DNA of 64,000 bases from IMG/VR virus record IMGVR_UViG_3300010163_000002, positions 160,001 to 224,000 of that record. One strand, 5' to 3'. This stretch comes from a virus (Duplodnaviria; Caudoviricetes). A program made the translations under genes and the position numbers. The notes under the pieces were generated by a model. That model was not told where the DNA came from. It ran no database searches and was given only the letters and a program-made list of their open reading frames with translations. Of the stretch, positions 7,108 to 62,548 are shown one piece after another (position 1 is the first letter of the stretch; the number at the start of each line of letters is the position of its first letter).

Positions 7108-7148
7108 TATCAAAATGTTGGGCCATAACACTTTTTGACATATTTGTA
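7108..7148. promoter_or_regulatory. divergent pair of putative phage late promoters
   Basis: AACA-ttttga-TAA on the minus strand (7108-7119) and GACA-tatttg-TAA on the plus strand (7137-7148). Confidence 0.65.
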
Positions 7149-7174
7149 AACACTGAATGGGGAGGTGAGCGGTT

Positions 7175-7630
7175 ATGTTTTTTAAACGTTTTAGAAAAAA
7201 TAGAGCCAATAAATATAATAAAGAATTAGACGAACTTAATAAAAAACAAGAAGAATTTGATTTGAAAATCAAAAAAGAAAAACAGAAAAGTTCGTTTAAA
7301 TCCATAATAAATAAACTAAAATTTGAAAATTATGTTAAAACTCTTGTAGCTGTAGTAATATTCGTAAGTTTAGTAGATCTGCAATTATCTTATATATTAG
7401 CATTTCTTGGTAGAGAAAATATTGCTGAGAAGCTATCTATTCAAATATGCACCACAATTCTTGGAACTGTACTTATATATATTATAAGATCTTATTTTGA
7501 TGATAAGAATAACCCAACTAAAATAGATACCGATGGAATAAAAGATAAAGCTAAAGAAATATTAGAAGATACTGGGTTATCCGATTTTATTAATAAAGAA
7601 CGAGAGCCGGAAAATCCAGATGATGTATAA
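7175..7630 (+). CDS. two-TM membrane protein (lysis-cassette-associated)
   Basis: Basic N-terminus, two hydrophobic helices, RBS GGAGGTG, directly upstream of a holin. Confidence 0.55.
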   Translation: MFFKRFRKNRANKYNKELDELNKKQEEFDLKIKKEKQKSSFKSIINKLKFENYVKTLVAVVIFVSLVDLQLSYILAFLGRENIAEKLSIQICTTILGTVLIYIIRSYFDDKNNPTKIDTDGIKDKAKEILEDTGLSDFINKEREPENPDDV

Positions 7631-7686
7631 ATAAATACACCTAACAGTTAGGTAAATAAATCAACCCAAAGGAGGATAATAAAATT

Positions 7687-8121
7687 ATGGAAAATGTAAA
7701 TTCTGATCTTTTAATGATGATCGTGGGAGTTATTATTGCAGCGGCTGCCGCAGTAGTAGGGCGATATGTAATCCCCAAGATTCCTAAAGACAAAGTTACA
7801 GAAGCAACTAATACTGTAAACATGGTTCTCGAATATGCTAGCAGCTTTTGCGCTTATGCTAAGCAGTTCATGCAGACTTCTACCGGTGAGGAGAAGATGG
7901 AATACGTTGTAGAGATGGTTACCGATGTCTGTGTCGCAAATGGAATTGACATCGATGAGAAACAATTGAGAGCTATTTGTCAGAGGGCCTATAATATTAT
8001 GAAAGCTGAATTGGCCAAAACAGAAACGCCGGTAGTTGGACTGCTTGATATTGCAGAACCTATTAAAGAATTTCCGCCGGTAGAAACTCAGACAGAGCCT
8101 GATACCAATGAACACGAATAA
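7687..8121 (+). CDS. LL-H-family phage holin
   Basis: One N-terminal TM helix followed by GEEKMEYV..IDIDEKQLRAICQRAYNIMK, typical of LL-H holins; promoter motif AACA-gttagg-TAA at 7643-7654. Confidence 0.65.
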   Translation: MENVNSDLLMMIVGVIIAAAAAVVGRYVIPKIPKDKVTEATNTVNMVLEYASSFCAYAKQFMQTSTGEEKMEYVVEMVTDVCVANGIDIDEKQLRAICQRAYNIMKAELAKTETPVVGLLDIAEPIKEFPPVETQTEPDTNEHE

Positions 8122-8128
8122 ATAAATT

Positions 8129-8158
8129 ATACGGATAGGGTTAACTCCCTATCCGTAT
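8129..8158. terminator. intergenic hairpin
   Basis: ATACGGATAGGG-ttaact-CCCTATCCGTAT. Confidence 0.75.
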
Positions 8159-8212
8159 GAATTGTCGCCGAAAACATTTTGATAATAAACCAATATAAAG
8201 GAGGATCAATCT

Positions 8213-8929
8213 ATGAATTCTTTAAATACTCCTATGTCGTATCATAGGCTTAATAGACAGCCGTTAGATGATTCTGAAGTGTTTTCCTCACTTAAAGATT
8301 TGATGGATTATTGCGATAACATGGCAAGATATGATGGTCAAAGAGTTGTAGTTACAGCTAATAATTCCCATAATCTTCCGGCTATAGAATATGTTATAAA
8401 AAATAATATTCCCATCATATCTAATATGATGGGTTCAGAATTGATTTTTAGAGAAGATATTAATTTTTTTGGAGATTCTTCTGCCAATTCTGCAGGTTTG
8501 CTTATATATGAGAATAATGATAATGGATCGTGGAAACCTAATAGTACATACATTATGGAAGAAGGTCATTTGTGTCTTATCAGTCAGGCAGAAATATTTA
8601 GATCAAAAACAAAAAGTTATAAATTTTACCTTGAAAGAATCAAAAGGAATGGATTCTTAAATCCTGGAGAAACTACAAAATATTATTGTTCATGGGAACA
8701 GAATTTTAACCCATTTACAGCAACAGGTACATATCCTAAAGTGGGAACTTTATTGAATAATGGAATACATAGCCTATTTGTTATTCAAGGTAATGACTAT
8801 CTCGACGTAGATACTACAGGATTACGTTTGATGCCTCATACTGATTCTGAGTTAGAGTCGGAAAAAAATTGGATTACCAGAATATATATCAAAGCAGATG
8901 ATTACTATAAGGCATATAAAGGTAGATAA
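8213..8929 (+). CDS. putative tail-fibre-associated structural protein
   Basis: N-terminal RLNRQPLDDSEVF..YDGQRVVV motif seen in phage fibre proteins; promoter motif AACA-ttttga-TAA at 8173-8184. Confidence 0.45.
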   Translation: MNSLNTPMSYHRLNRQPLDDSEVFSSLKDLMDYCDNMARYDGQRVVVTANNSHNLPAIEYVIKNNIPIISNMMGSELIFREDINFFGDSSANSAGLLIYENNDNGSWKPNSTYIMEEGHLCLISQAEIFRSKTKSYKFYLERIKRNGFLNPGETTKYYCSWEQNFNPFTATGTYPKVGTLLNNGIHSLFVIQGNDYLDVDTTGLRLMPHTDSELESEKNWITRIYIKADDYYKAYKGR

Positions 8930-8944
8930 TTATTAAGGAGGTGA

Positions 8945-14021: not shown

Positions 14022-14047
14022 ATAGCCATGGAGCAATCCATGGCTAT
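14022..14047. terminator. intergenic hairpin, GNRA loop
   Basis: ATAGCCATGGA-gcaa-TCCATGGCTAT followed by ATTTTATT. Confidence 0.75.
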
Positions 14048-15326: not shown

Positions 15327-15352
15327 TCCGATAGGGTTTACACCCTATCGGA
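15327..15352. terminator. hairpin overlapping the 3' end of the convergent gene
   Basis: TCCGATAGGGT-ttac-ACCCTATCGGA. Confidence 0.7.
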
Positions 15353-16666
15353 ATTCGTTTCGTTATATTCATTTATGAAACTTATAGTATCATTTACAAA
15401 TTTTCTATCTGTATATATTCCTATAATAGTTCTTTCATTTATTATACCTTCATCTATATGGGCAATCATTTTTCCCCAATCCATTTTGTATTCAAGTCTT
15501 TTACCGCCATTAAAGATAATAAAATTTAAAAATCTCATTGGACTAATTGCTATACGTTGCGTATAGTCTAATACTTTATCTATACCAGAGCCATAAAATA
15601 TATTCTTGAAATGTATATCGAGAGGTTTATTTAAATCTTCAGTATCAACTCCATATTCTGTAGTTGTTAAAAGGGCCCAATGATTTTCATCTTCATGCGG
15701 TACTCTAGTAACAATACCTGTCATGATAGATATATAATCAAAATTACTAGGAATATCTTTATTAAGAAATCTGTGTTCATCTTTTTGCGAGAAGTATGTA
15801 TAACAATACGGTGCTGTCATTTCCACTTCTAAAGGAAATTCAATATTATAGTTTGTGGTGATAGAATCAATTCTATCTCCGCTATCCATTGTTGGTAATT
15901 CACTTTTAATATGTACAACACAGTTAGGCACTTTAATAAAATATTCATCATTTCCTGTAGCGCATCTTAATTTGTACATGAATGGTATCAGGGAATGCGA
16001 GTTGAGATAATTCAATAATGATATAGGACTTTTGGGGTTTCCGTCTTGTTCAAGTTCAAATCCATTATCAAATGCAATCTGCTTTATAATATCTTTTGGC
16101 ACATGTACATCAACGTCAATATTTAATGTTTCGCTCCATCCAGCCCTATGTTTTAGTTTAATAAATTCCATCATATCAAGCTGCTGAGCTTTGGTATCTA
16201 CTCTCATTTTAAACAAAAAATTCATTTTTATTGTTTTAAATATAATCTGCAGAAATAATCCTTTATTATTTTCAATATCTTTAAAGAATATTCCTTCAAG
16301 ACGAGATCTTCTTAGTAACATAGGAATTTCAGGAGCGGAGTCAATCCAATCTCTATTATAAGAAAGGTCTATTTCCGGAACTAATGCTAATAATGGATTT
16401 GTTCTTTGTAATTTATCATTTATTGATGAGAATTTTCTAAATTCATCAAAACTATGAGTTCCATCCACATAAATAGAATTAAAGAATTTTTCCTTGAATT
16501 TAGACAAAAACCACTCTAATATAACTTCAGTGCATACTGAATATGATTGCTGCTGAGATGGTAATATGACACTGGTTCTCATTAATCTTGGTGTTTTTGC
16601 TTCAAATATATCTTGAGGCCTTAATGGTCTCAGACGATCTTTTTTTGTATTGCCTAAAGAGATCAT
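15338..16666 (-). CDS. conserved jumbo-phage virion structural protein (neck/tail-terminator-like)
   Basis: 442 aa, RBS AGGAGGG, promoter motif GACA-tctgaa-TAA at 16692-16703; fold assignment is inference. Confidence 0.45.
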   Translation of the reverse strand: MISLGNTKKDRLRPLRPQDIFEAKTPRLMRTSVILPSQQQSYSVCTEVILEWFLSKFKEKFFNSIYVDGTHSFDEFRKFSSINDKLQRTNPLLALVPEIDLSYNRDWIDSAPEIPMLLRRSRLEGIFFKDIENNKGLFLQIIFKTIKMNFLFKMRVDTKAQQLDMMEFIKLKHRAGWSETLNIDVDVHVPKDIIKQIAFDNGFELEQDGNPKSPISLLNYLNSHSLIPFMYKLRCATGNDEYFIKVPNCVVHIKSELPTMDSGDRIDSITTNYNIEFPLEVEMTAPYCYTYFSQKDEHRFLNKDIPSNFDYISIMTGIVTRVPHEDENHWALLTTTEYGVDTEDLNKPLDIHFKNIFYGSGIDKVLDYTQRIAISPMRFLNFIIFNGGKRLEYKMDWGKMIAHIDEGIINERTIIGIYTDRKFVNDTISFINEYNETNSDRV

Positions 16667-17306: not shown

Positions 17307-17786
17307 TCATCCCTCCTTAAGAACTTTATAAATTGCATTATCGTCATTTAATTCTATGCATTCTTTTGCAATGCTAAAAGCGGTATTAATATTATTGCCA
17401 TTAAAGAACCGCATATTGCAAAATTGATGACATAATATCTTTATGCATATTAATGCGGTCATAATACCTATTTTAGTATATTTGGAATCATCGTGTAATG
17501 AGTTTTCTTTTTGAGCCCGATTATATATAGACTTTAGCAACTCAGTAAGATCGTCTTTTTTTGTTATAAATTGTGTATAAAATACTTCACAATCATCCCA
17601 TCCAAATTTCATCATATCATCGGTTATAAGTCTTCCATATATTTCGAAAGCCATTCTATACCCGATCCATGCATGTAAAATATTTTCACTTTTATACCCT
17701 TGAGACTTTACTTCTTGTACAAAATCACTGGTTTTTTCGACTCCTAAATCGAATATCCAGTTTGCCATTGCTTGTGTAACTTTCAT
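17307..17786 (-). CDS. hypothetical protein, paralog of 16754-17302
   Basis: 159 aa, RBS AAGGAGGA, TATATTAT element upstream (17831-17838). Confidence 0.6.
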   Translation of the reverse strand: MKVTQAMANWIFDLGVEKTSDFVQEVKSQGYKSENILHAWIGYRMAFEIYGRLITDDMMKFGWDDCEVFYTQFITKKDDLTELLKSIYNRAQKENSLHDDSKYTKIGIMTALICIKILCHQFCNMRFFNGNNINTAFSIAKECIELNDDNAIYKVLKEG

Positions 17787-17856
17787 ACTATTTCCTCCTT
17801 GAGTATATATTAATTTCTATTATCATAATTATAATATATAAATGAAAAATATATTA

Positions 17857-17886: not shown

Positions 17887-18381
17887 TCAATCCTCTTCAA
17901 ACTTAGGTGTTTTACATTTTGTACCCTTCTTCTTTTTACAAGGATATCCTTTATCCTTAAGTGACTTGGCTAACCTTGTGGCTTTACTAACCTTATCAAG
18001 CACCTTGTCTTTAACCTTAGCGTTCTCTTTCTCACACGCTTTGCCAATCATTTCTGATACCCCACACTCGCTTTCAATGAGGAGCCCCACGGATTTAGCC
18101 GGCAGATTGTTCGCAGATGCAACAGCATCAAGAGCTTCTGCAATACTCTTAACTCCGTTATCCCTCATAAATGGCGCTAAGAATGTAGCTTCAGTAAAGT
18201 ATTCTTCATTAATCTTAACTACAGGAACCATCTCTGCAGTTGCAATATACTCTTCAGAGACTTCTTCAATGCTGCTATAATCTGAACGCACTTCTGACTC
18301 TCTTACAATACCATCAGTTCCAGGAAGATCAATTGCAGCGCATTCTGCTAATACGCTAAAACTATCTTTAATATACGGCAT
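17887..18381 (-). CDS. hypothetical late protein (possible internal head protein)
   Basis: Acidic N-terminus, Lys-rich C-terminus; promoter motif AACA-tctaag-TAA at 18406-18417. Confidence 0.5.
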   Translation of the reverse strand: MPYIKDSFSVLAECAAIDLPGTDGIVRESEVRSDYSSIEEVSEEYIATAEMVPVVKINEEYFTEATFLAPFMRDNGVKSIAEALDAVASANNLPAKSVGLLIESECGVSEMIGKACEKENAKVKDKVLDKVSKATRLAKSLKDKGYPCKKKKGTKCKTPKFEED

Positions 18382-18408: not shown

Positions 18409-19185
18409 TTAGATGTTTTGGTTTGTAATAACACACATCTCTTTTAATGGGCCATTATGTCGTCCATTACTCTTAAGTTGGTCTATATGAGTTTTAATAT
18501 CTCCCCTAACTCTATCCTTTTCAGGAATATTATAAGATCCATTTACATTTACATACATTTTATGTACATTAAATATCTGCATTCTTTTTTGTTCAAGATT
18601 ATCCTTAACGGCTTGTTCTGCCGCATCAATAGCATCAAGCAATTCAGGATTAATATGGTTATAATACGATTCTATAAAAGCTCTATAGTTTCCTCTTACT
18701 TTATTAGTAGATATGTACATATAAGCGTTATGAACCGTATCATGCGGAGTTTTTGATAACGGAATCAATCCAACCCATGCTATATAATGAAGATACAAAA
18801 CTTCTTCTGCAACAGCATTAATATTCATATCTTCATTATTAGCGATTCTCTTTTTAACCACAATATTACAGATATCATATAATGTAAATGGAGAATGGTG
18901 AATTTCAATTTTTACCTTAGAACCCATTCTATTCGATGATACATTTTCTAAAACTGCACATTCTGTCATTCCTTCAATTCCTTTAAGATAACCAATGAAT
19001 CGTCTATATTCAAATGAATTTCTAACAATTCTTTCAAGATTATCTATATACTTATCAAACGATTTTGGATTGCTAAGATCATATGGCTCTTCATCATAAT
19101 CCGGCAACTCATTTATATTTATAATACTTTCACCGCCATCAGTGTATATATTATCTATTTTATTCATAGCTTCAACATTTATCAT
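18409..19185 (-). CDS. jumbo-phage protein with HNH-like motif
   Basis: ECAVL…IEIHHSPFTLYD…GLIPLSKTPHDTVHN resembles a beta-beta-alpha-metal pattern; promoter motif at 19204-19215. Confidence 0.45.
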   Translation of the reverse strand: MINVEAMNKIDNIYTDGGESIININELPDYDEEPYDLSNPKSFDKYIDNLERIVRNSFEYRRFIGYLKGIEGMTECAVLENVSSNRMGSKVKIEIHHSPFTLYDICNIVVKKRIANNEDMNINAVAEEVLYLHYIAWVGLIPLSKTPHDTVHNAYMYISTNKVRGNYRAFIESYYNHINPELLDAIDAAEQAVKDNLEQKRMQIFNVHKMYVNVNGSYNIPEKDRVRGDIKTHIDQLKSNGRHNGPLKEMCVITNQNI

Positions 19186-21663: not shown

Positions 21664-21764
21664 TTTATTATCCTCCTTAAGATAAATATTTTTAATTTAA
21701 AGTAATAAATGTAATAATTTCTGAGTTTACATTACAGTAATTTTACGTATGGAGGAATAGAATT

Positions 21765-22414: not shown

Positions 22415-22432
22415 CTCCGATTTTTGTATACT

Positions 22433-22473
22433 TACTATTTTGTTTGGGTATTAAAATGCCAGACATCTTAATA
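22433..22473. promoter_or_regulatory. divergent pair of putative late promoters (holin-like gene / endolysin)
   Basis: AACA-aaatag-TAA on the minus strand (22433-22444) and GACA-tcttaa-TAA on the plus strand (22462-22473). Confidence 0.65.
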
Positions 22474-22498
22474 AAATATATAAAGGAGGTAGTTCTAT

Positions 22499-26177: not shown

Positions 26178-26235
26178 TTTTACCGAGTTAGCCGCTCGAT
26201 AAAATAAAAATTTTAAATCTAAGGAGGAAAAAATA

Positions 26236-27090: not shown

Positions 27091-27105
27091 TTCCATATTC
27101 TGGTT

Positions 27106-27128
27106 AGCCGGGGATTATATCCCCGGCT
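27106..27128. terminator. intra-operon hairpin
   Basis: AGCCGGGGAT-tat-ATCCCCGGCT. Confidence 0.65.
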
Positions 27129-48900: not shown

Positions 48901-51900
48901 AGCTAATGATTCAAGACGAGTGAGAAACTTAGTTATTAGACGTGGCGGAGATGAACTTGAAGAATGGTGTAGAGCCAATGGTTTTACAGGAAGTCTTGAT
49001 GAAAAGAAAGTACGACTTGGCAACGAATTTGGTTTACCTGCAACTGCATTAGCAAAAATTAAGACTGACGAGGATGCGAATTTAGTATTTGCTAAGCAGT
49101 ATAGGCATAACGCTAAAGGTACATCTGGAAAACCATTTATGGGAATATCTGCACTTACTAAAGGCGAAGGCCTTCTTAGTAATCGTGGGTTTGGTGTGGT
49201 TCCTAAAACTGGTGTTTATAATGTAACAACTCCTACTCATATTATTAATACTGAAGATATGCATACATTATCCGGCGGTAAGGGCACTAGAGTATCTGTA
49301 CAGCAGGCTCTTGGAAAAGAAAAGTTGGCTGCAAAGGCTGCTGGGTATAAGATTGCATCTCATGCTGGTGGTACTGGTATGAAAATCACTAATGATGGCG
49401 TTGATATAGATACCAATGCTATTATGAGCGAAGCTAAAAGATTTATACCTGAAGCTGCAGGTGGCGGCTTAGTTGGCGGTATTTTATCACTGGTATTAGG
49501 CTTAGCAGGAGGACCAATTCTTGGTGCTGCTGTAGGCGCAGCAGGCACTATCGTATCTAAATCTGATACATTGAAAGACATGTTATTCGGTAAAGCCGGA
49601 GAAGATGGTAAAAGAGACGGCACTGGTATTGTTTCTAAAACTATCATGGATACAGTTAATAAATATGCTCCCGATGCTCTTAAATATGGTATGGCTGGAG
49701 TTATTCCTGGATTACTTACACCTCTTGGCCCTGTAGGAGGACTTCTCGTTGGTGGAGCAATTGGAGTATTAAAGAATAATGAAAAATTCACTAATAAATA
49801 CTTTGGCGAAGAAGGAAAACTTACCATTGGTTCTAAGGAAAAGAAAATACTTGAGAAGATGTTTCCGGCTGCTGCTAAGGGAGCTGCGATTGGCACTATA
49901 GCAGGATTCCTTTTACCAACACCGTTTGGATTCCTTGGTAACGCTATGTTTGGTAGCGCTATTGGGATGATGACTGCTACTGATGAATTTAAAGATCTTA
50001 TACTTGGTAAAGAGATTAATGGTGAAAGATTTGGTGGTGTTCTTGGAGCGATTAAGGACGCACTAAATCCATTTACAAATTCATTAAAAAATGTTGGAGA
50101 AAAATTATCTGACGCGTTTGAAGCAAATGTAATTAGCCCGTTGCAAAAATTCATTAAACCTGCAATACACGCCCTGCCAATAGCACTTGGAGCAGTACCA
50201 AGATTTCTTGGAAAGCAACTTGACAAACATACTCAGGGTATAAGACGTACTGTAGGTGGTAAAGTTAAAGACGTACTCGGAAGACCTGCTAAAATTGTTG
50301 CTGGTGGAATGGAAGCTGTAGCCGGTGGGGTAGGAAAAGTATTATCCGTACCTGGCAAAATTATAGGCGGGGCTGGTGATAAGTTAAGAGAATACGATAT
50401 TAGAAATGGCGATTTTGTAGATATGAATCAGGTTCAGGCTGTTGCTTGGATGGATTCTCACAAGAGAGGCGATAAAGTAAGTTCTACCCTTAGAGCATCA
50501 TCAAAAGTTGGTTCCGGCGCAGATGACTCAATGACTGTTGAAGATGCTGAGGCAATGGCTAAATATCTTGATAGAATGAATGATTCAGAATCTACCGCAC
50601 GTAAAAATCTGGATGCGAAAAATAAAGCATTAAATAATTTACTTGATAATTATACAACCAAAGATGGTACAAAACTTTCAAAGAAGCAGATTAATGGAAT
50701 ATTAGATGCTGCTGACAGGAAAGAATTTGGAGACATATCTAGGATATTACAATCAGATGGAACGCTAACTAAAAGCGAATTTAACAAATTCATGGATGAA
50801 GGCGGCTTAAAGAAAGCCGTTATGGATGCTCATGATGCTAAATCTAGGCTTAAAAATATAACAGATATTGGAAGTACAGACGAAGCTGCAAAAGGCTTAA
50901 ATGAAATGCTAGAAAAATTTAATATTACTGATGACTTTGATTGGACTAATAAGAAAGAAAGAGCTAAGTTTTCAGCTCTTCTTAAAGATAGATTAGTTGA
51001 GCTTCAAGCTAATCCTGATGAAATTAAGGAAAAGCGAGAAGAAGAAGTAATGGAAGAAAATAATAAAAATATTATAACAATTACAGACAAAGTTTCTGCT
51101 ATTGCTAAATTCTTTGAAGATATGACTAATATGAATAATGAAGCTACCAAAGATATTAATGAACAAACTCAAGCTAGCCTTGAAGCTGGGCAAAGGTTTA
51201 TAAATGGAAAGTACGATAAAAATATTGAAAGCGCTAAAAAAGATATGGGCAAAGATGAAGCTTCTAAACTTACTCCGGAAGGAGAAGATAGATTATCTTC
51301 TGAAAAAACATCTAACCGTGCATATAAATATACTGCTGATATCGTTAATAATGCTACTGGCGGTATGGGCAATTTCAATAAGGCTCAAGGGTTATTCAGA
51401 AAAGGAGCTACAGGAATACTTGGCGATCTAAGCAAAGCGTTTACTCCAGAAGGAGTTAAATATGTATCTAACTTATCCAAAACTAAACTTAAAACGTTTA
51501 ATACTTGGGTAAATAAGAAATTTATCAAGAAAACTATTCTTAATGGTAAATTTAAAATAACTGATAAAACTGTTGAATTTATGACTAAAACTGTTAATAA
51601 TAAACAGCTATATGATAATTGTAGATTCCTTAGCCAGATTTATAATAAACCTACAGGTAAAGGCATTTATAGTAGATTCGAATCTCTTGAGGCTATAGGA
51701 ATGCTTGATGACATAGCATTACAAGAATTGAGAGAGGAATTTGGGGTTAATGACTCTGATGCCACATCGTCATTTACAACAAATGCCGCTGGAGTAGCTG
51801 GTAGAACTGCTAAGGGCGTTGCATGGGGAACCGGAGCTGTTGTAGGCGGTCTTGCAGGTGCGGGAAAAGAAATTGTATCAGGTACTGCGAAGACTGCTGG

Positions 51901-54900
51901 TAAAGGAGCAAGGTATGTTAGAGGAGCACGTTCTGATGAATGGTATTCTAAACATGCCCCTGCAGAAGAAGCTCAGCCTGAAGCAGAACAGAACGGCCTT
52001 GGTACTTTACTTCTTAGCGGCGCAGGAAAACTAGCAAGTGGAACTCTCGGAAGCGTCGGTAACCTTGCTATGAACGGTATTGGAGCTGTTGGTAAGTTGG
52101 CCGGAGGACTACTAGGTGGTGTAGGAAAACTTGCTGGTGGTTTACTTGGATCTATATTCGGAAAGAATAAAAAAGATTCTGGAGACGAAAATTCATCTAA
52201 AGCATTAGGAGCTATGGCAGGTTTACTTGGATTAAATAGCGCTAGTGCATCCTCACCAGTGTTGTCTAGCGGTGAAGGATTTGAAGAAACTGATAAAAAA
52301 GGTGATGGTAAAGACGTAGTAAGTCTTGGCGATGGTATGTTTGGCCAGGTTAGACGAGATTCATCTGGCAATGTTGAGTTGGATGGATCAGATTCTGCTA
52401 CTAAAAATGCCATGAACAAGATAGCACTAAAAGAAAAAGCTCAAGAAAAATTAAGAGATGCTCAATTAAAAGCATGCGAAATCATCAAGAGTAATTTTGA
52501 TACATCAGCTATCAAAGAATCTAAAGGTGGTAAAATAGGTTGGCTTGGATTGCTTCTTATGGGAGGATTACTTGCTAAAACTGGTGTGCTTAAGAAAATA
52601 TATGAAGGAGTTATAGAACCTATATGGACTAATGGTATCAAACCTTGGGCCGAAAAAATATGGACTGAAAAACTCAAACCATTTTTAACAGAAGATGTGC
52701 CAAACTGGATTATGAATACTGCTATTCCATGGCTTGGTAAAACTTTTGGTGGCATATTAAATACTGCAATACAAGGTTTACCTGCTATTTTAAGTGGCGG
52801 AGGGTCTGTAATTGGTGGTATTCTTGATTATGTAGTTGGAAATAAAAATAATGCTGGAGCAAGTACAAGCGGATCTATATCAAAAGATGCATATGATGGA
52901 TCTTTGGTAGATGAAAATGGTAAAACTCTTAGTTATGACGATATAATTAATAAAAATTATAATACCGCTTATAATGAGCAAGGAGCTGAAGTGCAAATTG
53001 ACGAGGACGGTAATTTTACTGTACAGGATGAATCTGTTAAGGGCAGTAATTATTTATCAGCACTTGGCAAGGGTGCAAGTAGAGCTTTTAACCTCGGAAT
53101 GATGAGCGGCAAACAAAGTAAAATTATACAAGCCGCATCAAAAGTAACCGGATGGCTTGGTAAACATGGAACAACGCTTACGAAATTTGGTGGTAAAATA
53201 GGGAATTTCTTCACCAAACCTCTTGAATTTGCTAATAAAAAAGGAGTTAATTTTAGTGAAAGATGGGGGAATTTTACAGATAGTATAATAGATAAGGCAT
53301 TAGGAAAAAATACAGCAGAAGAAACAGCATTAGCTGTAATTGATAATGTCAGCGAACAGGCAGCAGATTCTGCTATAGGAAAAGCATTAAAAAATGGTGC
53401 TGAAGATATAGCTCAGGAAGCTGTAGAAACAGCAACAAAGAAAGGTGTATTAGGCACTATCGGAGATTTCTTTAAGGGAGTCGGGTCAAAAATACAGCAC
53501 GGCGCCGGTAAAGCACTCAATGCTCTGGTTGATGCTGTTAAAAAAGTAATTGATAAATTCTGCAATAGCTGGATAGTCAAAGATGCTTTAAGTAAAGTTG
53601 CTAAAACTCTCAAAATCGACGACGTTACAGGTTATATTGCAAAATTCAGATCTAAAGCTAATGAAGTATTTGAAACTGCAGTAAAAAAAGCATGTGATAA
53701 ACTAGGCGAAAATGCAGTAAAACAATTGGCAAAAACTGTTTTGGCTGCTGTAACTGCAGGTATTGATTTTACTGTAGCATTAGACCAGGCAGAATCAATT
53801 CTTGAAGTAAGAGAGACATCTTTTATGGAAGAATTAATTGCAGGTTTGATTAATACAGTTATAGGATTAATACCAGTGATAAACATGTTTTCAGATTGGA
53901 TTATAAAACAATTATTCTCATTTTTCGGTGAAGACTATGATGTAAGACATGCTGAAGCCGAAGCATATGCGGAACAGTATAATGCAGAACATCAAACTAC
54001 GTATTCTACAGCAGAAATTTTAAAATATCAGAATTCTGTTACTGGTAAAGTAGAAAAAGCTGTTGGAGACTTTGTTAAACCTATTGGAGATGCTGCAGTA
54101 GGAGCCGGTAAAGCAATATACAATGGTGGTAAAGCTGCTGTGGGGTGGATAGGTGATAGAGGAAAAGATATTGCCAACTTCTTTGGATGGGGCGGAGATG
54201 ATGAAGTAGAGTCTAATGCCGAAGGTACAATGACCAAAGGATGGTTGAATACAACTACTATTTCTAAAAATCCAATACATAATTTATTTAATAAAGGATT
54301 AAAGGGATTGGCTAATATTATGGGAGATCCTATTAAAATCCTTGCAAACGCAAATGAATTTAAAACTTTAGATTCTATTATGGCTAAAGCTAAAGAAGGC
54401 AAGATTTCAGTATTCTCTAAAGAATTCTGGAAAAATGATGACATCAAAGATAATTCCGTTGCAGGAATACTTAGAAATGTATTAAGTAAATTTACTAGAT
54501 TTATGAGCGCTCCTATGCTTATGGTTAAGAGTTCTCTTGAATCATTGTATGATGATATTAATGTAGTTGGAAATGCTATGATTGGCAAAACTAATGCTGC
54601 TACATCATCAAAATCAATTACATCTTCTAGCAAAGCTGTAACAACTTCACCATTAAAGAAATCTACTGGATTCTTATCTAAAGTTAAAACAACGTTTGGT
54701 AGCGCTGTTAGCAAGATCAAATCATTCTTTGGATTTGGTTCTGGTCCTGATTATCAGTATGGTACAGGAATGTATTCTAAACAGATTGATCCTGATGTTG
54801 CTGGTATTAGATTCAATACATCATCTGATAGCGAGTATCAGACCATTGGTAATTCTGGTTGCGGCCCTGCGGCTGCTGTTAACGCATTAGAGTCTATATA

Positions 54901-57900
54901 TGGGCGTGGTAATGCTGTTGCTGATGCCGCTAGATTCGCGCTTAACCATGGATATAAAGAAACAGACGGTGGTACAAAGCCTGGATTCTTTACTGATTAC
55001 TTCAATAGAAATGGTTTAGGAGCTCAGACTTCTTATAACAAGAGCCAAATTGAAAGAAATATTAATAGCGGTTTGCCTACAGTAATTATGGGTAGAAACG
55101 CTAAGGGCACGTCATCGGCATCTCCATTTGGAAGTACTCCTCATTATGTAACAGTAACTGGAACTGATGGTCATGGAAATGCTATTGTACAAGACCCTGA
55201 ATCTAAATATGATAATCAGCTCTATCCTGTAAAGAGCCTTATGAAGAATACCTCATTAGGAGTTTCTGCATTTGGCAAACGGTATGGTATGGGTATGAGG
55301 CCTGATAGATTTGCATACAAAAATAAACGTATAACTAGATGGGGTACAGGTAAGGGTACTATTATTTTTATAGGAGATTCTCGTACTGTTGGTATGAAGA
55401 GCGCCGTCGGTAACAATAGCCATATATGGTCTTGTAAGGTTGGTATGGGTCTTAACTGGATGAAATCTACTGGAGTTCCAGATGTAGAAAGTCAGATTGA
55501 TTCTAATAAGGCTGTAGTAATACTTATGGGAGTTAATGACTGTGATGGTAGCGCTTCTGCTAAGAGATATGCTGCTTATATAAATGATAAGGCCTCTGAT
55601 TGGGTATCTAAAGGGGCTGAGGTGTACTTTGTATCTATTAACCCTGTAGATGAAAGTAAATATCATGGTGCTGTAACAAATGCTAAGATAGACGAATTTA
55701 ATAGTACTATTAAGACTGCACTGTCTAGCAATGTAAAATATATTGATACAAATAGCCAAATTAAATCATCAATGTCTTCTTCTGACGGGCTGCATTATAA
55801 TAATGCAACGTATAAGGAGATTTATAATATTATTACAAATGCTGTAGCTACAGGTGTATCAGCAAGCACCACTTTAACTTCGACAAGTAGTTCTACTTCT
55901 TCAAGCATCACTACATCTAATGCTAATGATAACTCCGCTCCTCAGACTCCAACTGTGGTAAGCATGTTTTCTGATATTCTTATGAATTCTAAAGCTGGTA
56001 AAGCTCTTGGATTATTTATAGGAACTTCAAATAATGATCAACAATCGTCTAATACTACTTCTAATAATACATCTTCAAGCTCTTCATCTTCCAGCACAAA
56101 TAAAGGATCATTCCCTAAGTATGATCTTAATGATCAGCAGATTAAGGGTATTGCTAATATACTTCAGCATGAACAGCCAGGATTATCTGGTATGCTTGCG
56201 GAAGCTTCATTGATGGCCAATCTTACTGATATGGGTGGAGATGATAAAGCTACAACTGAAAATCTTGTTCGTAAAGCTACCTCAGGGTGGTTTGCTTACG
56301 GAAGTAGCAGATTTAATAATCCTGGCACTCCAAGTGCTGAAGCTATTAAAGCTGCAAAAGCCGTATTACTTAATGGTAAACGTACAGTACCTAGGTATGT
56401 AGATGAGCATGATTGCTTTAGCGATCTTTCTTCAGTTACAACCGATGGTAAATCAAATACTATATCTGATAGATCTGGTTATGTACAGCACAAAACCAAG
56501 ATTAATAACCGTTATGGTTCATCTTATACATTCTGGGGATTCCCGAATAGTGGAGCAGATCCATTTGGTTATACTAGCGATGCTAATCGTCAAAAATGGG
56601 GAGATGATTGTTTCTCTGCAGAAGATGCGACATCCGGTCTTGGTAGATTTAAACGTAGAAAACATGGTAGAGGCAAATGGGGTAGAGGTACCGAAGATCA
56701 AATTTGGTATTACCTGAGACATACCGGTGGAATGACTGAAGAGGGCGCTGCTGGTCTTATGGGTAACCTTGAAGCAGAGTCTGGAATGAGACCAAACAAT
56801 GCTGAAAATGGTTATGAGTATTTGACTGGTAACGATGAAGAATATACTAAAAAGATTGACTCTGGACAAGTATCAAGATTCCAGTTTGCACATCCTTGGG
56901 GAGATAGCAGGCAGTGTGGTTATGGTCTTGCTCAATGGACTAGCGCTGGAAGAAAAGAAGGACTATATGATCTTGTTAAAGAACGTAATGTATCTATTGC
57001 CGATTTGAAAACTCAGCTTGATTGGCTTATGACGGAATTAAATAAATCATATGCCGGAGTATATTCAGTACTTAAATCAACAAATAGTTTACAAGCTGCA
57101 TCGGATAAAGTTCTTGGAGAATTTGAAATTCCTGCAAACTGGAGAAGCCAATCTGGAACTAGGGCAAGTATGGGGCAGAAATGGCTTAATAAGTTTAAAG
57201 GAACAGAAGGAGAGCAGTTAGGAGATTCTACTACCATGAACAATTCTTCTAGCGGCGATTCAGATTCTGAAACTACCCAACAGAATAGTAGTCCAACAAT
57301 TATTGATATGATGACCAATATCTTAGCAGAATCTAAAGTTGGTAAAGCGTTGCATGCATTTATCGGTGGAAATACTGGCGCTGCACCTTCAGGATCGGAC
57401 AACAATAGTTCAGGCTCTACAGCATCTGGGGACGCAGCGGAAGTAGTTAAGATAGCTAAGGAACAGGTTGGTATTAAGGAATCTCCTGTAAACGTATGTA
57501 AATACAATGACTGGTATTATGGCCACCATGTAAATGGAGATGCATATCCATGGTGCGCAGCATTCACATCATGGGTAACAAATGAAGCTGGAGTACCTAC
57601 AAGTATTATGCCTAAAGACGCTTATACGGTAACAGCGTACCAGACTCTTGTTAATAGAGGAGGTAAAATATCTAACTCTGAAGCTAGACCTGGAGATATC
57701 ATTTACTTCACAAAGAATGGCGCTGCTAGTGGTATTTATCATACCGGTATTATTACAGACAATAGCAATGGCGTAATTAGTACTGTTGAAGGTAATAGTG
57801 GTAATGCTGTAAAAGAGCATACATATAACGTTAGCAGTGGTAAAGTACTTTGTGCAAGGCCGCAATATAAAAATACAAGCAATAATACATCAACAACAAC

Positions 57901-58510
57901 TTCTACAACTACAAATAGTTCTGAAACCAAAACCGCCGGAGATGCTCCAGATGTATCTAATACCCGTGGCGGAAATGGTAATAAACCATTATCTAGATAC
58001 GGCCAATATAGAGATACTATCTATGGTAGAGGATCAGAAAGAAAAATTAAAAATAGAGGAGTTCCTAAACAGCATCTGTCTCGTGAAGGATACACTAAAG
58101 TTGATGTATCTACATTTGATACCCAGCTTGGAAATGCACTTAAAACAGCAAACCGTCCTAAGGTGTATAAGTATGGTTCTGTTGGACTTGGTTCTGGCCC
58201 GGCATATGGTAAAGGAACTAGTCCGGATTATAGTAAACTAATTAATAGTATTATTAAAATCTTAATGACTATTGCAGATAATACTGATAAACTTAATATT
58301 ATCGTATCTATTCTCAATAATAAATTAGGGGCTAATATAACAGCATCTGATGTATCTGATCAAAATGCTAAACACGAAAGCTTAAAATCTAAATTAGCTA
58401 GTAGTTTAAATAACGTAGATTTATCTAAATTTAATAATGCAGCAGATCAAATTGGTGATAATTCGATTAATTCGATTATATCTGCCATGAATGCTATTGC
58501 ATCTGAATAA
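45905..58510 (+). CDS. giant tape-measure protein with C-terminal peptidase C39-like, SGNH, unknown hydrolase-like, phage tail lysozyme and CHAP domains
   Basis: 4,201 aa, helical and Gly-rich hydrophobic segments. Motifs: FDGITRKAIIEVIPTYLRRI; GNSGCGP..HYV..QDP; FIGDSRT..GVND..DGLH; AAGLMGNLEAESG..GYGLAQWT; PWCAAF..HTGI..TVEGN. Promoter motif at 45872-45883. Confidence 0.85.
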   Translation: MKIKMKRVNNYMKNVMKSVTYAAADIASDYTPGMQELKSSNQEFIKSTYAALKNPKAAIKRSVEAIQESKTFKALDYGAKNLVEDLRTGNFYNKERKDRDELRLSGLDFDMDDLSQFGIDDDWESKVNNSSSSSDSGITAGDMRIVNSIEGSNAALASATVNAVIRTSNSQIRAGRANMGMIYVQNEKLFGGLHNDISILNNTMNEMYKMQAASLQNIDKNMSNFFTSEAKLSAERNAILKEMLEMQRNQYKSAIDKERESKLKKTNKVRWSDVNVNGMVDFDAYFKNVQKNISNQLSSMIGMEGFGEDGNLLATFMTSPLEGAVKAVVNGVIPATVKAAAKEFDGTLSGIFGTLMGKMANAKSNDDGGLLGILSKFLGINTGVNKSIDTSRYEKGPVPFDGITRKAIIEVIPTYLRRIEAAISGRPEQLFDYKSGKWTKGADLKKQYDEIHKNAIKSGTSEVREMLNPSMAAMKNGAKSRSEAEAMEKAWDEFYQFLMDNNGIFNPKVSAFKNGVSSSTYPNFYKYYNAIRKAYAEQDVVEQRDNTGKVIRSRNTKNRVRMQLAGNVLSAKEREEQQYRDIELDPTSPFYALFSGIKFDEHGKWKGDNKNFKAFNRLSNEKDELGNNIFNYLQNINKELTWVRLNLPNMTFSAGRGRRKATDSVTGTRVSFDSINLMNASLKNANDAEYRNKNNDDEKIRRAALEKIKSGKAVDLSVFSEDEQEYLLALAELMRNSSAEEYKSELEGYNAGGISSWMNKNVYKANIRTRKDLEEAIRKANKEGKNIDDEKMDQKEEKFFQKIMKRVNAGGDIIGGVVGAAADSFTNVLYAADKAVYEMFYKTEIQDEEDKTKYKGFMDMMAHKMSDTFKDIKEKFKKDILDPFKERFGITEENKKRFKEGAINTLGSIWGVFKDSNKSIYGPLLDKMREGEFDYEEYGRQQSEAARALTKEERDRRKNVRRGLHVSDIATSKITNKDFARAISNGTKEWGAITTNSVEANDSRRVRNLVIRRGGDELEEWCRANGFTGSLDEKKVRLGNEFGLPATALAKIKTDEDANLVFAKQYRHNAKGTSGKPFMGISALTKGEGLLSNRGFGVVPKTGVYNVTTPTHIINTEDMHTLSGGKGTRVSVQQALGKEKLAAKAAGYKIASHAGGTGMKITNDGVDIDTNAIMSEAKRFIPEAAGGGLVGGILSLVLGLAGGPILGAAVGAAGTIVSKSDTLKDMLFGKAGEDGKRDGTGIVSKTIMDTVNKYAPDALKYGMAGVIPGLLTPLGPVGGLLVGGAIGVLKNNEKFTNKYFGEEGKLTIGSKEKKILEKMFPAAAKGAAIGTIAGFLLPTPFGFLGNAMFGSAIGMMTATDEFKDLILGKEINGERFGGVLGAIKDALNPFTNSLKNVGEKLSDAFEANVISPLQKFIKPAIHALPIALGAVPRFLGKQLDKHTQGIRRTVGGKVKDVLGRPAKIVAGGMEAVAGGVGKVLSVPGKIIGGAGDKLREYDIRNGDFVDMNQVQAVAWMDSHKRGDKVSSTLRASSKVGSGADDSMTVEDAEAMAKYLDRMNDSESTARKNLDAKNKALNNLLDNYTTKDGTKLSKKQINGILDAADRKEFGDISRILQSDGTLTKSEFNKFMDEGGLKKAVMDAHDAKSRLKNITDIGSTDEAAKGLNEMLEKFNITDDFDWTNKKERAKFSALLKDRLVELQANPDEIKEKREEEVMEENNKNIITITDKVSAIAKFFEDMTNMNNEATKDINEQTQASLEAGQRFINGKYDKNIESAKKDMGKDEASKLTPEGEDRLSSEKTSNRAYKYTADIVNNATGGMGNFNKAQGLFRKGATGILGDLSKAFTPEGVKYVSNLSKTKLKTFNTWVNKKFIKKTILNGKFKITDKTVEFMTKTVNNKQLYDNCRFLSQIYNKPTGKGIYSRFESLEAIGMLDDIALQELREEFGVNDSDATSSFTTNAAGVAGRTAKGVAWGTGAVVGGLAGAGKEIVSGTAKTAGKGARYVRGARSDEWYSKHAPAEEAQPEAEQNGLGTLLLSGAGKLASGTLGSVGNLAMNGIGAVGKLAGGLLGGVGKLAGGLLGSIFGKNKKDSGDENSSKALGAMAGLLGLNSASASSPVLSSGEGFEETDKKGDGKDVVSLGDGMFGQVRRDSSGNVELDGSDSATKNAMNKIALKEKAQEKLRDAQLKACEIIKSNFDTSAIKESKGGKIGWLGLLLMGGLLAKTGVLKKIYEGVIEPIWTNGIKPWAEKIWTEKLKPFLTEDVPNWIMNTAIPWLGKTFGGILNTAIQGLPAILSGGGSVIGGILDYVVGNKNNAGASTSGSISKDAYDGSLVDENGKTLSYDDIINKNYNTAYNEQGAEVQIDEDGNFTVQDESVKGSNYLSALGKGASRAFNLGMMSGKQSKIIQAASKVTGWLGKHGTTLTKFGGKIGNFFTKPLEFANKKGVNFSERWGNFTDSIIDKALGKNTAEETALAVIDNVSEQAADSAIGKALKNGAEDIAQEAVETATKKGVLGTIGDFFKGVGSKIQHGAGKALNALVDAVKKVIDKFCNSWIVKDALSKVAKTLKIDDVTGYIAKFRSKANEVFETAVKKACDKLGENAVKQLAKTVLAAVTAGIDFTVALDQAESILEVRETSFMEELIAGLINTVIGLIPVINMFSDWIIKQLFSFFGEDYDVRHAEAEAYAEQYNAEHQTTYSTAEILKYQNSVTGKVEKAVGDFVKPIGDAAVGAGKAIYNGGKAAVGWIGDRGKDIANFFGWGGDDEVESNAEGTMTKGWLNTTTISKNPIHNLFNKGLKGLANIMGDPIKILANANEFKTLDSIMAKAKEGKISVFSKEFWKNDDIKDNSVAGILRNVLSKFTRFMSAPMLMVKSSLESLYDDINVVGNAMIGKTNAATSSKSITSSSKAVTTSPLKKSTGFLSKVKTTFGSAVSKIKSFFGFGSGPDYQYGTGMYSKQIDPDVAGIRFNTSSDSEYQTIGNSGCGPAAAVNALESIYGRGNAVADAARFALNHGYKETDGGTKPGFFTDYFNRNGLGAQTSYNKSQIERNINSGLPTVIMGRNAKGTSSASPFGSTPHYVTVTGTDGHGNAIVQDPESKYDNQLYPVKSLMKNTSLGVSAFGKRYGMGMRPDRFAYKNKRITRWGTGKGTIIFIGDSRTVGMKSAVGNNSHIWSCKVGMGLNWMKSTGVPDVESQIDSNKAVVILMGVNDCDGSASAKRYAAYINDKASDWVSKGAEVYFVSINPVDESKYHGAVTNAKIDEFNSTIKTALSSNVKYIDTNSQIKSSMSSSDGLHYNNATYKEIYNIITNAVATGVSASTTLTSTSSSTSSSITTSNANDNSAPQTPTVVSMFSDILMNSKAGKALGLFIGTSNNDQQSSNTTSNNTSSSSSSSSTNKGSFPKYDLNDQQIKGIANILQHEQPGLSGMLAEASLMANLTDMGGDDKATTENLVRKATSGWFAYGSSRFNNPGTPSAEAIKAAKAVLLNGKRTVPRYVDEHDCFSDLSSVTTDGKSNTISDRSGYVQHKTKINNRYGSSYTFWGFPNSGADPFGYTSDANRQKWGDDCFSAEDATSGLGRFKRRKHGRGKWGRGTEDQIWYYLRHTGGMTEEGAAGLMGNLEAESGMRPNNAENGYEYLTGNDEEYTKKIDSGQVSRFQFAHPWGDSRQCGYGLAQWTSAGRKEGLYDLVKERNVSIADLKTQLDWLMTELNKSYAGVYSVLKSTNSLQAASDKVLGEFEIPANWRSQSGTRASMGQKWLNKFKGTEGEQLGDSTTMNNSSSGDSDSETTQQNSSPTIIDMMTNILAESKVGKALHAFIGGNTGAAPSGSDNNSSGSTASGDAAEVVKIAKEQVGIKESPVNVCKYNDWYYGHHVNGDAYPWCAAFTSWVTNEAGVPTSIMPKDAYTVTAYQTLVNRGGKISNSEARPGDIIYFTKNGAASGIYHTGIITDNSNGVISTVEGNSGNAVKEHTYNVSSGKVLCARPQYKNTSNNTSTTTSTTTNSSETKTAGDAPDVSNTRGGNGNKPLSRYGQYRDTIYGRGSERKIKNRGVPKQHLSREGYTKVDVSTFDTQLGNALKTANRPKVYKYGSVGLGSGPAYGKGTSPDYSKLINSIIKILMTIADNTDKLNIIVSILNNKLGANITASDVSDQNAKHESLKSKLASSLNNVDLSKFNNAADQIGDNSINSIISAMNAIASE

Positions 58511-60433: not shown

Positions 60434-60487
60434 TACAGCATGAACTACATAAGGTTAAATATACTCTTATATGGAGGTGGCGCTTGT

Positions 60488-61198
60488 GTGTTATCACGTA
60501 AACAAAAAATGATATTATATGATGAAAAATATGGTCATATACCAAAAGATTATATACAAAGACTAGAATATCTTTATGATACTCTTAATATAGATGATAA
60601 TAAATCTGACGAAATATTAAGGGCAAGACAAGCATTTATTAATTCTACATATTATCAAACTTTAAAAATCATTTTATATGAAATACCAGAATATACTCCT
60701 AGACCAAGAGCTAGGATTATACATAAAAATGGTATTATAAATGCCGTTACTGGTGGAAATGATTTCATTCAGGTATATTCAATTACCGGAAGACAGAATA
60801 GAGAATATATGAAGATGTTTACAAGGGAAAATATAAACGAATTGCAACAACTTCTTTGCACTCCATGCGATATAGAGTATAAAACATATTTCCCAACACC
60901 ATCATATTATAACAAAACTCAAGTTTTTCTAGCCGAAATAGGATTGGATAGACCTATAAATAAACCAGACTTTGACAACATAGAAAAATCATATGCAGAC
61001 TCATTTACAGGTAATATATGGATAGATGATATAGTTGTAATAGATGCAACGATAAGAAAATATTATTCTATATTACCTAGAGTGGAAATAGATCTCAAAT
61101 ATTCGAATCAATTATTTAACGCTCATCAATATAAAGCCATGCTTAAAAGGAAGGATTTTACTGACGATATGAATGTAAATTATTTCGGAGGTAAATAA
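60488..61198 (+). CDS. rusA: RusA-like Holliday junction resolvase
   Basis: PRPRAR, KPDFDNIEK, DSFTG.IWIDD.VV and KYYS.LPRVEI motifs; GTG at 60488 after GGAGGTG; promoter motif at 60446-60457. Confidence 0.8.
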   Translation: MLSRKQKMILYDEKYGHIPKDYIQRLEYLYDTLNIDDNKSDEILRARQAFINSTYYQTLKIILYEIPEYTPRPRARIIHKNGIINAVTGGNDFIQVYSITGRQNREYMKMFTRENINELQQLLCTPCDIEYKTYFPTPSYYNKTQVFLAEIGLDRPINKPDFDNIEKSYADSFTGNIWIDDIVVIDATIRKYYSILPRVEIDLKYSNQLFNAHQYKAMLKRKDFTDDMNVNYFGGK

Positions 61199-61200
61199 AA

Positions 61201-61482
61201 ATGGAAAAATTAAGACAGGCTTATGATATGAAAAAAAATATTATCGAAAATGGGGATATGCTTGAATTAGAGAAAGCTCTCAAAAAATCTCCAAACATAG
61301 ATAATGTAAATGTAAATAGCGACGGCACAATGAGATTAGAATCTAATAGCGGAATGGATTCTTTAAATTGTGCTGTAGAAAATACAGTACTTAATTGGAT
61401 AAAGCAGGAACTTAAATTTCCTGTTTCTATTATTTGTAATACTTTACCTATTAATCATAACGCGTGCATACTTAAAGTATAA
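61201..61482 (+). CDS. hypothetical protein
   Basis: 93 aa, RBS GGAGGT. Confidence 0.55.
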   Translation: MEKLRQAYDMKKNIIENGDMLELEKALKKSPNIDNVNVNSDGTMRLESNSGMDSLNCAVENTVLNWIKQELKFPVSIICNTLPINHNACILKV

Positions 61483-61492
61483 ACAAAAAACT

Positions 61493-61518
61493 ACCCCTAG
61501 GGATAACTCCCTAGGGGT
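61493..61518. terminator. bidirectional hairpin; exact inverted copy of 5158-5183
   Basis: ACCCCTAGGGA-taac-TCCCTAGGGGT between convergent genes. Confidence 0.8.
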
Positions 61519-61528
61519 TATATGTTGA

Positions 61529-62503
61529 TTAAAGATTCTCAAGATAATTATTCAAGAAGTTTTCATCAATATTAATCATCTGCATGGTATTAACCATCTC
61601 AAGCATGGTATAAATAAGCTGGGCTGATTCAACAATCATATTCATATCTACAGCAGCTTCATGAATATAAATAGCTCCAAGCTTACTGTCTTTAAGCACA
61701 GACTTAGTAAGAGATTCTACAATACATCCAAAGATGTTCTTATCCTGCATTGCTCTTCTCTCATCAATATCCAGCTTAGCCATATCAAGATAAGATTCTG
61801 CTAATGCATCATTTCCCTTAACAAGAGCGGCTTTATCCTGAGCTTGCTTAATGATCTCTTCGTACTCAACCTTATTTGCAGCATTGGAATCTACAAAGTC
61901 TGTAATAGCATCCGCAACTCTATCTTTAATCATCTTAGATGCATCCGTTACATCAACCTCTTCAAGCTCTCTGTAAAATTCATCAATTGTGTCTGGATCA
62001 ACAATCTGCTTAGCGTTGGAGAAATCATTTGTACTGCATGCTTCACAATCTTTAGCTTCAAGAATCTTATCATAGTATTTCGTACAAATTCTACTGAATT
62101 CTGCCAAAATAAAATTCTTCGAAGCGAATGAATGAATTAATTCTCCCGCACTGTTTTCAATGACAAACTTGTTTACAAGATTCTTTGCTACTGTTTTGTC
62201 TCTTGATGTAAGCGGAGCTACAGATGATTCCTTATAAAGCTTATAAATGCATTCAGAAATAAGAGATTTCTTAATATTATCGATAAACTCTGCTCTGGAT
62301 GCGTCGCTCTCAAGCATGGATTTGTTATACTCCATCATATTATTGATATATTCCTGCCTCTCAAGCTGAGCTGCTCTTGACTCCGCATATTCTTTATCAT
62401 TATCATTATTATAAATCTCTTCCTTCTGCTCCCTGAGCATTTTAGCTATATCAGTAAAACTAAGTTGCATGTTTTCTGATGGTTTATTCATATCATAAAT
62501 CAT
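61529..62503 (-). CDS. acidic helical late protein (probable head/scaffold-associated)
   Basis: 324 aa, helical, several hydrophobic-x-E-(A/S) sites; promoter motif at 62536-62547. Confidence 0.45.
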   Translation of the reverse strand: MIYDMNKPSENMQLSFTDIAKMLREQKEEIYNNDNDKEYAESRAAQLERQEYINNMMEYNKSMLESDASRAEFIDNIKKSLISECIYKLYKESSVAPLTSRDKTVAKNLVNKFVIENSAGELIHSFASKNFILAEFSRICTKYYDKILEAKDCEACSTNDFSNAKQIVDPDTIDEFYRELEEVDVTDASKMIKDRVADAITDFVDSNAANKVEYEEIIKQAQDKAALVKGNDALAESYLDMAKLDIDERRAMQDKNIFGCIVESLTKSVLKDSKLGAIYIHEAAVDMNMIVESAQLIYTMLEMVNTMQMINIDENFLNNYLENL

Positions 62504-62548
62504 TATTACCGTGCCTCCTTATTGAATTCAATTTTTATTAAAATGTTT

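Follow-up and report, generated by a model that had tools for sequence, protein, structure and literature searches.

A 64,000-nucleotide window of an uncultured tailed-phage genome (bases 160,001–224,000 of the 248,905-bp IMG/VR record IMGVR_UViG_3300010163_000002, which has direct terminal repeats and ~33% G+C) carries a short motif, DACA-N6-TAA, immediately upstream of many of its genes, and this motif is probably a late promoter of the type described in Bacillus phage AR9. In AR9, late promoters have the form AACA-N6-TA/G, with the last base being the mapped transcript start (PMC5312081), and in AR9 and PBS1 they are read by a holoenzyme of the non-virion RNA polymerase (nvRNAP) and the specificity subunit gp226 (PMC5312081, PMC5449584, PMC9209446). 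By its gene content, the phage studied here is an uncultured giant (249-kb), distant relative of AR9 that encodes a complete set of nvRNAP subunits together with a homologue of gp226. We propose that the motif is the late promoter of the phage's own nvRNAP, that the DNA it is read from probably contains thymine and that the promoter-recognition pocket has changed, and we place the probability of this reading as a whole at roughly 70%. We infer promoter function, start site and thymine content alike from sequence comparisons.

Results

A first-pass annotation of the window had listed 20 DACA-N6-TAA sites. All 20 are present, each on the strand of the gene downstream as claimed, and the base counts given for them were exact (first base A in 11, G in 5 and T in 4, with T following ACA in 16 of the 20). 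The positions were right for plus-strand starts, whereas minus-strand coordinates were one base off (corrected spans in Table 1). Two further sites with the same pattern (4302–4314 and 32299–32311, both plus strand) were absent from that list, and two gene starts were corrected, to ATG 14090 and GTG 60488. Sites lie 16–60 nt from the start codon, with an AGGAGG-type ribosome-binding site (RBS) at the start codons, and the motif shows no TTGACA/TATAAT (−35/−10) architecture.

The departure from chance lies in the placement of the motif, not in its total count. DACA-N6-TAA is not enriched across the whole window (40 observed versus 58.8 ± 7.8 expected) because it is depleted in coding DNA. Genome-wide, 66 of the 165 matches fall within non-coding DNA, which makes up 7.5% of the genome; 58 of these 66 point toward a gene start, most commonly at a distance of 24–27 nt. 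Comparison with a composition-matched shuffled background, proposed with the first-pass annotation as a check, revealed clear enrichment, with 55 sense matches in 154 upstream spacers versus 7.7 ± 2.8 (largest 22) in 500 dinucleotide-preserving shuffles of those spacers. A blind search, also proposed there, recovered the motif as well: expectation-maximisation, run on the 40 nt that precede the RBS, returned D-A-C-A-T-N3-A-R-T-A-A in ~36% of spacers, with frequencies of A 0.98, C 0.95 and A 0.76, then T 1.00 and A 0.98, at AR9 spacing. Earlier searches had converged on the RBS and then on terminator hairpins (GC-rich hairpins with T-runs are the second strongest spacer motif genome-wide), and the promoter emerged after the RBS was trimmed and the search confined to the proximal 40 nt. 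With the matrix of the blind motif, 89 genome sites score at least 10 bits, and 70 of the 89 are followed by an RBS and an open reading frame (ORF) within 120 nt, an arrangement found at 10.6% of random positions.

The promoter core matches that of AR9 and PBS1 (ACA at −10 to −8, the N6 spacing, T at −1 and A at +1), with differences at the flanking positions. One identical procedure was applied to three genomes, in each of which background A is ~0.4 in upstream regions. A at −11 has a frequency of 0.84 in AR9, 0.42 in this phage and 0.36 in its relative G003, the last two at background, so that the AR9 preference for A at −11 is not found here and the degeneracy described at this position in the first-pass annotation is borne out. 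T at −7 (0.32, 0.65 and 0.62, respectively) and A at +2 (0.46, 0.90 and 0.77), along with a purine at −2, are added here. Readout of −11, which is intolerant of a methyl group in AR9, thus appears from these frequencies to have been lost, with specificity moved elsewhere.

Cognate machinery is predicted in the same genome. Nucleotide searches against cultured phages returned no relative, or one short nvRNAP match, and the 478-aa protein of gene 5650–7086, used as a query for relatives, retrieved none; IMG/VR genomes served as relatives for gene-content comparison. The nvRNAP β-C protein is closest to that of Bacillus phage AR9/PBS1 (g089; 33.5% identity), followed by those of the Staphylococcus S6-like phages, Listeria LPJP1 and Yersinia phiR1-37. 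As in AR9 and PBS1, the nvRNAP has split β and β′ subunits, with homologues of AR9 g105 (β-N; E 1e-57), g089 (β-C), g270 (β′-N) and g154 (β′-C), and three virion RNA polymerase (RNAP) subunits are encoded as well (homologues of AR9 g145, g189 and g264). No Sigma70_r2 or other sigma-70 domain was found in the genome.

The gp226-like specificity subunit, which the first-pass annotation had suggested seeking elsewhere in the genome, lies outside the window (G000 ~25,700–27,963; L005:1106–3964, minus strand) and has full-length homology with AR9 gp226. Its gene is split by a ~1.2-kb insertion carrying an HNH_3/NUMOD4 endonuclease ORF, with exon 1 ending in U. A 347-aa ORF aligns with AR9 gp226 residues 26–289, and the second piece, which gave no tblastn matches and an insignificant BLASTP result against AR9 gp226, is assigned as the C-terminal exon because it, the next ORF, aligns with uninterrupted 521-aa relatives (junction SEYD/RYEARL). 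Many relatives have the uninterrupted gene and many others the split form, and a metagenome protein search retrieved 452 gp226-like proteins. An Rfam scan of the insertion found no group I intron; in AR9, the same endonuclease type sits in an intron of nvRNAP β′-N (g270/g271). Although the gp226-like protein (~520 aa) is longer than AR9 gp226 (464 aa) and only ~24% identical to it, profile–profile alignment with hhalign (seven cultured gp226 proteins versus 68 members of this phage's gp226-like family) gave a probability of 99.7% and E 9e-27 over 422 columns, covering AR9 residues 34–464, and the sole match of the family profile in the PDB was 7S01_A, AR9 gp226 itself (E 1.3e-17).

In AR9, gp226 Ile207 and β-N Arg363 hold the template −10 U wedged between them; the C5 atom of this base lies 3.9 Å from Cβ of Val206, and the V206G mutant accepts thymine. 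The U at −11 packs so closely against the DNA backbone that a methyl group would not fit, and the −9 G stacks on Tyr210 (all PMC9209446). Inspected by alignment, this pocket is altered here. Val206, invariant in seven cultured AR9-type phages, was assigned by three independent alignments to one column of the gp226-like family, which lies inside an otherwise conserved KSKNPDKxLWEKN segment and yet holds 12 different residues in the 68 sequences (P 15, I 13, L 11, Q 7, V 6, K 6 and others; Pro in this phage). Ile207 is replaced by a conserved Leu, Trp208 is invariant and Tyr210 is replaced by an invariant Lys, so this family departs from the conserved 2.1bis helix of AR9-type proteins, with its invariant Val206 and aromatic residue 210. 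In β-N, the stacking Arg363 is kept as R396. The situation resembles the engineered V206G variant, which accepts T at −10 (PMC9209446), in that the gating side chain of Val206 is removed or unconstrained, but differs in that the column is naturally variable and never Gly among the 68 sequences, and in that the −11 requirement, not reported to be relieved by V206G, is gone as well.

A companion motif separates the genes into two classes. AR9 early promoters have the form AAATATATATTAT-N6-G (PMC5312081), and a second motif in this genome, TaaTtR-TATATTAT-A-N4-tG, has the same core and spacing (TATATTAT-N6-G). Genes for the capsid, portal, sheath, prohead protease, holin and lysin have the late motif upstream, as do several that encode homologues of AR9 virion proteins. 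So do the three virion RNAP genes, one of which is the β-like gene 38021–42400(−), which would be a late gene as in AR9. The early motif stands upstream of the genes for the gp226-like protein, nvRNAP β-C and β′-C, an SF2 helicase, gyrA and dTMP kinase. Fifteen virion, lysis or virion-RNAP genes have the late motif and no gene of these kinds has the early motif alone, and the split between classes, which were assigned by gene function, is significant (Fisher P = 0.003 and 0.0006). Judged by motif, then, the gene classes are divided as in AR9, with the late motif tied to virion and virion-RNAP genes. The motifs are also conserved: in four relatives whose gp226-like proteins are 57–78% identical, ACA and TAA alone are kept in orthologous spacers (those before the capsid, g165-like and virion RNAP β′ genes were compared), the early motif before the gp226-like gene is kept in 5 of 5 genomes, and a blind search of a complete 313-kb relative returned ACAT-N5-TAA. 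The proposal that the motif is an AR9-type late promoter is therefore upheld by the nvRNAP set with its gp226 homologue, the early promoters, the split between gene classes and conservation in relatives.

Genes for thymine synthesis set this genome apart from AR9. The thyA gene, described as intact in the first-pass annotation, encodes a full-length match to thymidylate synthases of the Bacillus ThyA type. Among solved structures it is closest to B. subtilis ThyA (1B02), in an alignment that pairs the catalytic Cys, the Asn that specifies dUMP and the R-S-x-D motif, and it falls in the PHROG thymidylate synthase family. A dUTPase and a dTMP kinase are also encoded, the latter above the equivalog cut-off and behind the best-scoring early promoter among annotated genes (17.7 bits), whereas none of the three families was found in AR9. 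No homologues of AR9 Ugi, dCMP deaminase or 5′(3′)-deoxyribonucleotidase (g221 and g151 included) were detected in the genome, nor was any Pfam dCMP/cytidine deaminase domain. ThyA separates the clade from cultured phages completely, being present in 7 of 7 clade genomes (this phage and 6 of 6 IMG/VR relatives, 5 of which also have a dUTPase) and in none of 7 cultured AR9-type phages (AR9, BpSp, LPJP1, Machias, S6, SA1 and phiR1-37). Virion DNA is thus likely to be thymine DNA, as had been proposed from thyA, and for the deoxyuridine that AR9 requires at template positions −11/−10 these genomic indicators point the other way here. The earlier suggestion of a uracil-independent version of the system gains support from ThyA, the loss of the Val206 constraint and the background-level A at −11.

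Several observations weigh against this reading. Function of the gp226-like gene despite its 1.2-kb interruption assumes splicing. In β-N, a Thr is aligned to AR9 Lys375, the residue that bonds the −10 base. All residues seen at the Val206 column carry a Cβ, and some relatives keep Val or Ile there, so acceptance of thymine must arise from an altered geometry of the pocket. A few genes of the replication and nucleotide classes (gyrB, thyA) have weak late-like variants of the motif upstream. ThyA scores 299.8 bits against NCBIfam NF002495, below the equivalog cut-off of 327. Finally, the ThyA family includes dUMP and dCMP hydroxymethylases, and some phage ThyA homologues make 5-hydroxymethyl-dUMP, in phages that have dUTPase-like and dNMP kinase genes.

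These last two points bear on the strongest alternative, in which the late promoter is AR9-type and the ThyA homologue makes some other C5-substituted dUMP, for example 5-hydroxymethyl-dUMP as in SPO1-type phages. Such a base is kept as a candidate because ThyA homologues can make it and this one scores under the cut-off; moreover, the ThyA alignment shows Tyr in place of one of the paired arginines that bind phosphate, and the neighbouring genes 19258–19845(−) and 19835–20782(−) have no family match. We nevertheless consider it unlikely, given that the best full-length matches are bona fide thymidylate synthases (1B02 and the ThyA of a Tsamsa-like Bacillus phage, 45% identical), that thymidylate synthase families alone score and that the dTMP kinase passes its equivalog cut-off. 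No base-hypermodification genes are on record for the genome, although no search aimed at them was made. In its full form, with the ThyA homologue, dUTPase and dNMP kinase supplying a C5-modified, non-thymine uracil that a remodelled gp226-like pocket would read, the scheme is similarly improbable; if true, the pocket would keep the distinction between self and host, which is the logic of AR9 with a different base.

That the genome might consist of uracil DNA as in AR9 despite ThyA, with uracil-dependent promoters, would fit the AR9 promoter core and gp226 family that the clade shares and the Val or Ile retained at the Val206 column in some relatives. This is quite improbable: dUTPase, ThyA and dTMP kinase together oppose the accumulation of dUTP, ThyA is missing from all 7 cultured AR9-type phages, a set that includes several known to have uracil DNA, and neither the constraint on Val206 nor the preference for A at −11 persists. 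The marks expected of uracil-DNA jumbo phages (PBS1/AR9, S6 and phiR1-37), namely no thymidylate synthesis genes but Ugi and dUTP-favouring enzymes, are the reverse of what is found here, where homologues of AR9 Ugi, dCMP deaminase and deoxyribonucleotidase were sought and not found.

It is very unlikely that the motif is something other than a promoter, whether an RNA leader element (a processing site or translation signal) or the site of another DNA-binding factor. The tight spacing to the start codon, most often 24–27 nt, would suit a leader element, but some orthologous genes, the capsid gene included, lie as far as 47–89 nt from the motif, and sites occur just after terminator-like hairpins and in divergent back-to-back pairs. 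AR9 has essentially the same consensus and spacing, there at mapped transcript starts (PMC5312081), and the genome encodes both the cognate polymerase and its specificity subunit. A chance pattern, to which the 73% A+T of the spacers and the missing whole-window enrichment might have pointed, is ruled out by the shuffling control (55 sense matches versus 7.7 ± 2.8) and has next to no standing beside the strand and position bias, the blind recovery in two genomes and the conservation at orthologous sites.

Table 1 Predicted promoter motifs and associated genes in the 64,000-nt window (window coordinates).
Feature	Coordinates	Strand	Context
Late motif TACAATATTATAA	4302..4314	+	27 nt before ATG 4342, helix-turn-helix protein; not in earlier list
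Late motif AACATTTTGATAA	7107..7119	-	20 nt before start of gene 5650-7086(-); predicted +1 7108
Late motif GACATATTTGTAA	7137..7149	+	25 nt before ATG 7175; predicted +1 7148
Late motif AACAGTTAGGTAA	7643..7655	+	31 nt before ATG 7687, holin
Late motif AACATTTTGATAA	8173..8185	+	27 nt before ATG 8213
Late motif AACATAAAATTAA	13186..13198	+	24 nt before ATG 13223
Late motif GACATTTGAATAA	14061..14073	+	16 nt before likely true ATG 14090, RBS GGAGGTG
Late motif GACATCTGAATAA	16691..16703	-	24 nt before start of gene 15338-16666(-)
Early (virion RNAP) motif, AR9-type, with TATATTAT-N6-G	17824..17844, approximate	-	Upstream of gene 17307-17786(-)
Late motif AACATCTAAGTAA	18405..18417	-	23 nt before start of gene 17887-18381(-)
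Late motif AACATTTATATAA	19203..19215	-	17 nt before gene 18409-19185(-), AR9 g242 homologue
thyA, thymidylate synthase, 285 aa	20806..21663	-	Pfam PF00303, E 2e-59
Late motif TACATTACAGTAA	21728..21740	+	24 nt before ATG 21765
Late motif AACAAAATAGTAA	22432..22444	-	17 nt before holin-like gene 22022-22414(-)
Late motif GACATCTTAATAA	22462..22474	+	24 nt before ATG 22499, GH25 lysin
Late motif TACATTTATTTAA	32299..32311	+	56 nt before ATG 32368; not in earlier list
Late motif GACATTAATGTAA	33407..33419	+	60 nt before ATG 33480, fibritin/whisker-like protein
Late motif TACATAAAGGTAA	34767..34779	+	47 nt before ATG 34827, amidase-like C-terminus
Virion RNAP β-like subunit, 1459 aa	38021..42400	-	Pfam RNA_pol_Rpb2_6; AR9 g189 homologue
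Late motif AACAATATATTAA	42425..42437	-	24 nt before gene 38021-42400(-), virion RNAP β-like
Late motif TACATACTGGTAA	45136..45148	+	48 nt before ATG 45197
Late motif AACATAGTAGTAA	45872..45884	+	20 nt before ATG 45905, 4201-aa ORF
Late motif AACAATTAAGTAA	58558..58570	+	18 nt before ATG 58589, AR9 virion protein g205 homologue
Late motif TACATAAGGTTAA	60446..60458	+	29 nt before likely true GTG 60488, RBS GGAGGTG
Late motif AACATTTTAATAA	62535..62547	-	31 nt before start of gene 61529-62503(-)

The arrangement of the sites along the window has some further features. In two divergent, back-to-back pairs of late motifs (7107–7149 and 22432–22474), 17 nt separate the two members, and the second pair serves a holin-like gene in one direction and the GH25 lysin gene in the other. 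The two holin-like genes (7687–8121 and 22022–22414), ~14 kb apart, each have their own late promoter; the 4201-aa ORF is a single frame (45905–58510, plus strand) directly behind the promoter at 45872; and a terminator-like hairpin with a T-run (14024–14045) lies just upstream of the promoter at 14061. The variant upstream of thyA, TACTTTAAATTAA (~21692–21704, minus strand; ACT for ACA), is 28 nt before the gene start, and the weak variant of gyrB is similar to it. Outside the window, the capsid leader (G000 ~35,480–35,570) spans 68–89 nt from late promoter to gene start and includes a block conserved in all four genomes compared (G000, L018, L020 and L021), which contains a palindrome, TTATTTATATAAATAA, that may be a regulatory or RNA-structure element.

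Discussion

By analogy with AR9, four split β/β′ subunits and the gp226-like, sigma-like specificity subunit would form an nvRNAP holoenzyme that recognises ACA at −10 to −8 through its complement in the template strand and initiates at the first A of TAA, leaving 5′ leaders of ~17–35 nt. The virion RNAP, packaged with the phage, would first read TATATTAT-N6-G early promoters, expressing the nvRNAP and replication genes, and the nvRNAP would then read D-ACA-T-N3-A-R-TAA, expressing virion, lysis and virion-RNAP genes. Unlike in AR9, thymine DNA is very probable and the promoter pocket would have changed to match: the Val206 gate, which excludes the methyl group of a −10 thymine in AR9, appears unconstrained, Tyr210 is an invariant Lys, readout of −11 seems lost, and extra specificity would lie at −7 (T), −3/−2 (A, R) and +2 (A).

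The closest parallel on thymine DNA is the jumbo phage phiKZ, which has a five-subunit nvRNAP whose fifth subunit, gp68, is a distant homologue of gp226 (PMC7598289, PMC8287921). The present system resembles it in having a five-subunit enzyme with a gp226-related subunit acting on (here probable) thymine DNA, but the TATG late promoters of phiKZ are proximal to the start site without an ACA-like −10 element, and the subunits of this phage are far closer to those of AR9.

The AR9 nvRNAP is the textbook example of a polymerase that reads its promoters from the template strand and needs uracil in DNA, and that requirement has been proposed as its means of sparing host DNA from transcription; in the literature we searched, a 2026 review included, the AR9-type system is still described as uracil-based. 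The evidence here supports template-strand promoters of the AR9 type in a clade of uncultured jumbo phages that encodes ThyA and probably has thymine DNA. The enzyme, specificity subunit and promoter core are kept in this clade, apparently on thymine DNA, with ThyA in every long relative checked. This large clade would supply natural variants of the uracil gate, with Val206 unconstrained, Tyr210 replaced by Lys, −11 readout lost and +2 A and −7 T gained. In practical terms, the two motifs may serve to assign early and late genes in such uncultured phages. More broadly, the results reopen the question of how a polymerase with such short promoters avoids the host chromosome once DNA chemistry no longer marks self.

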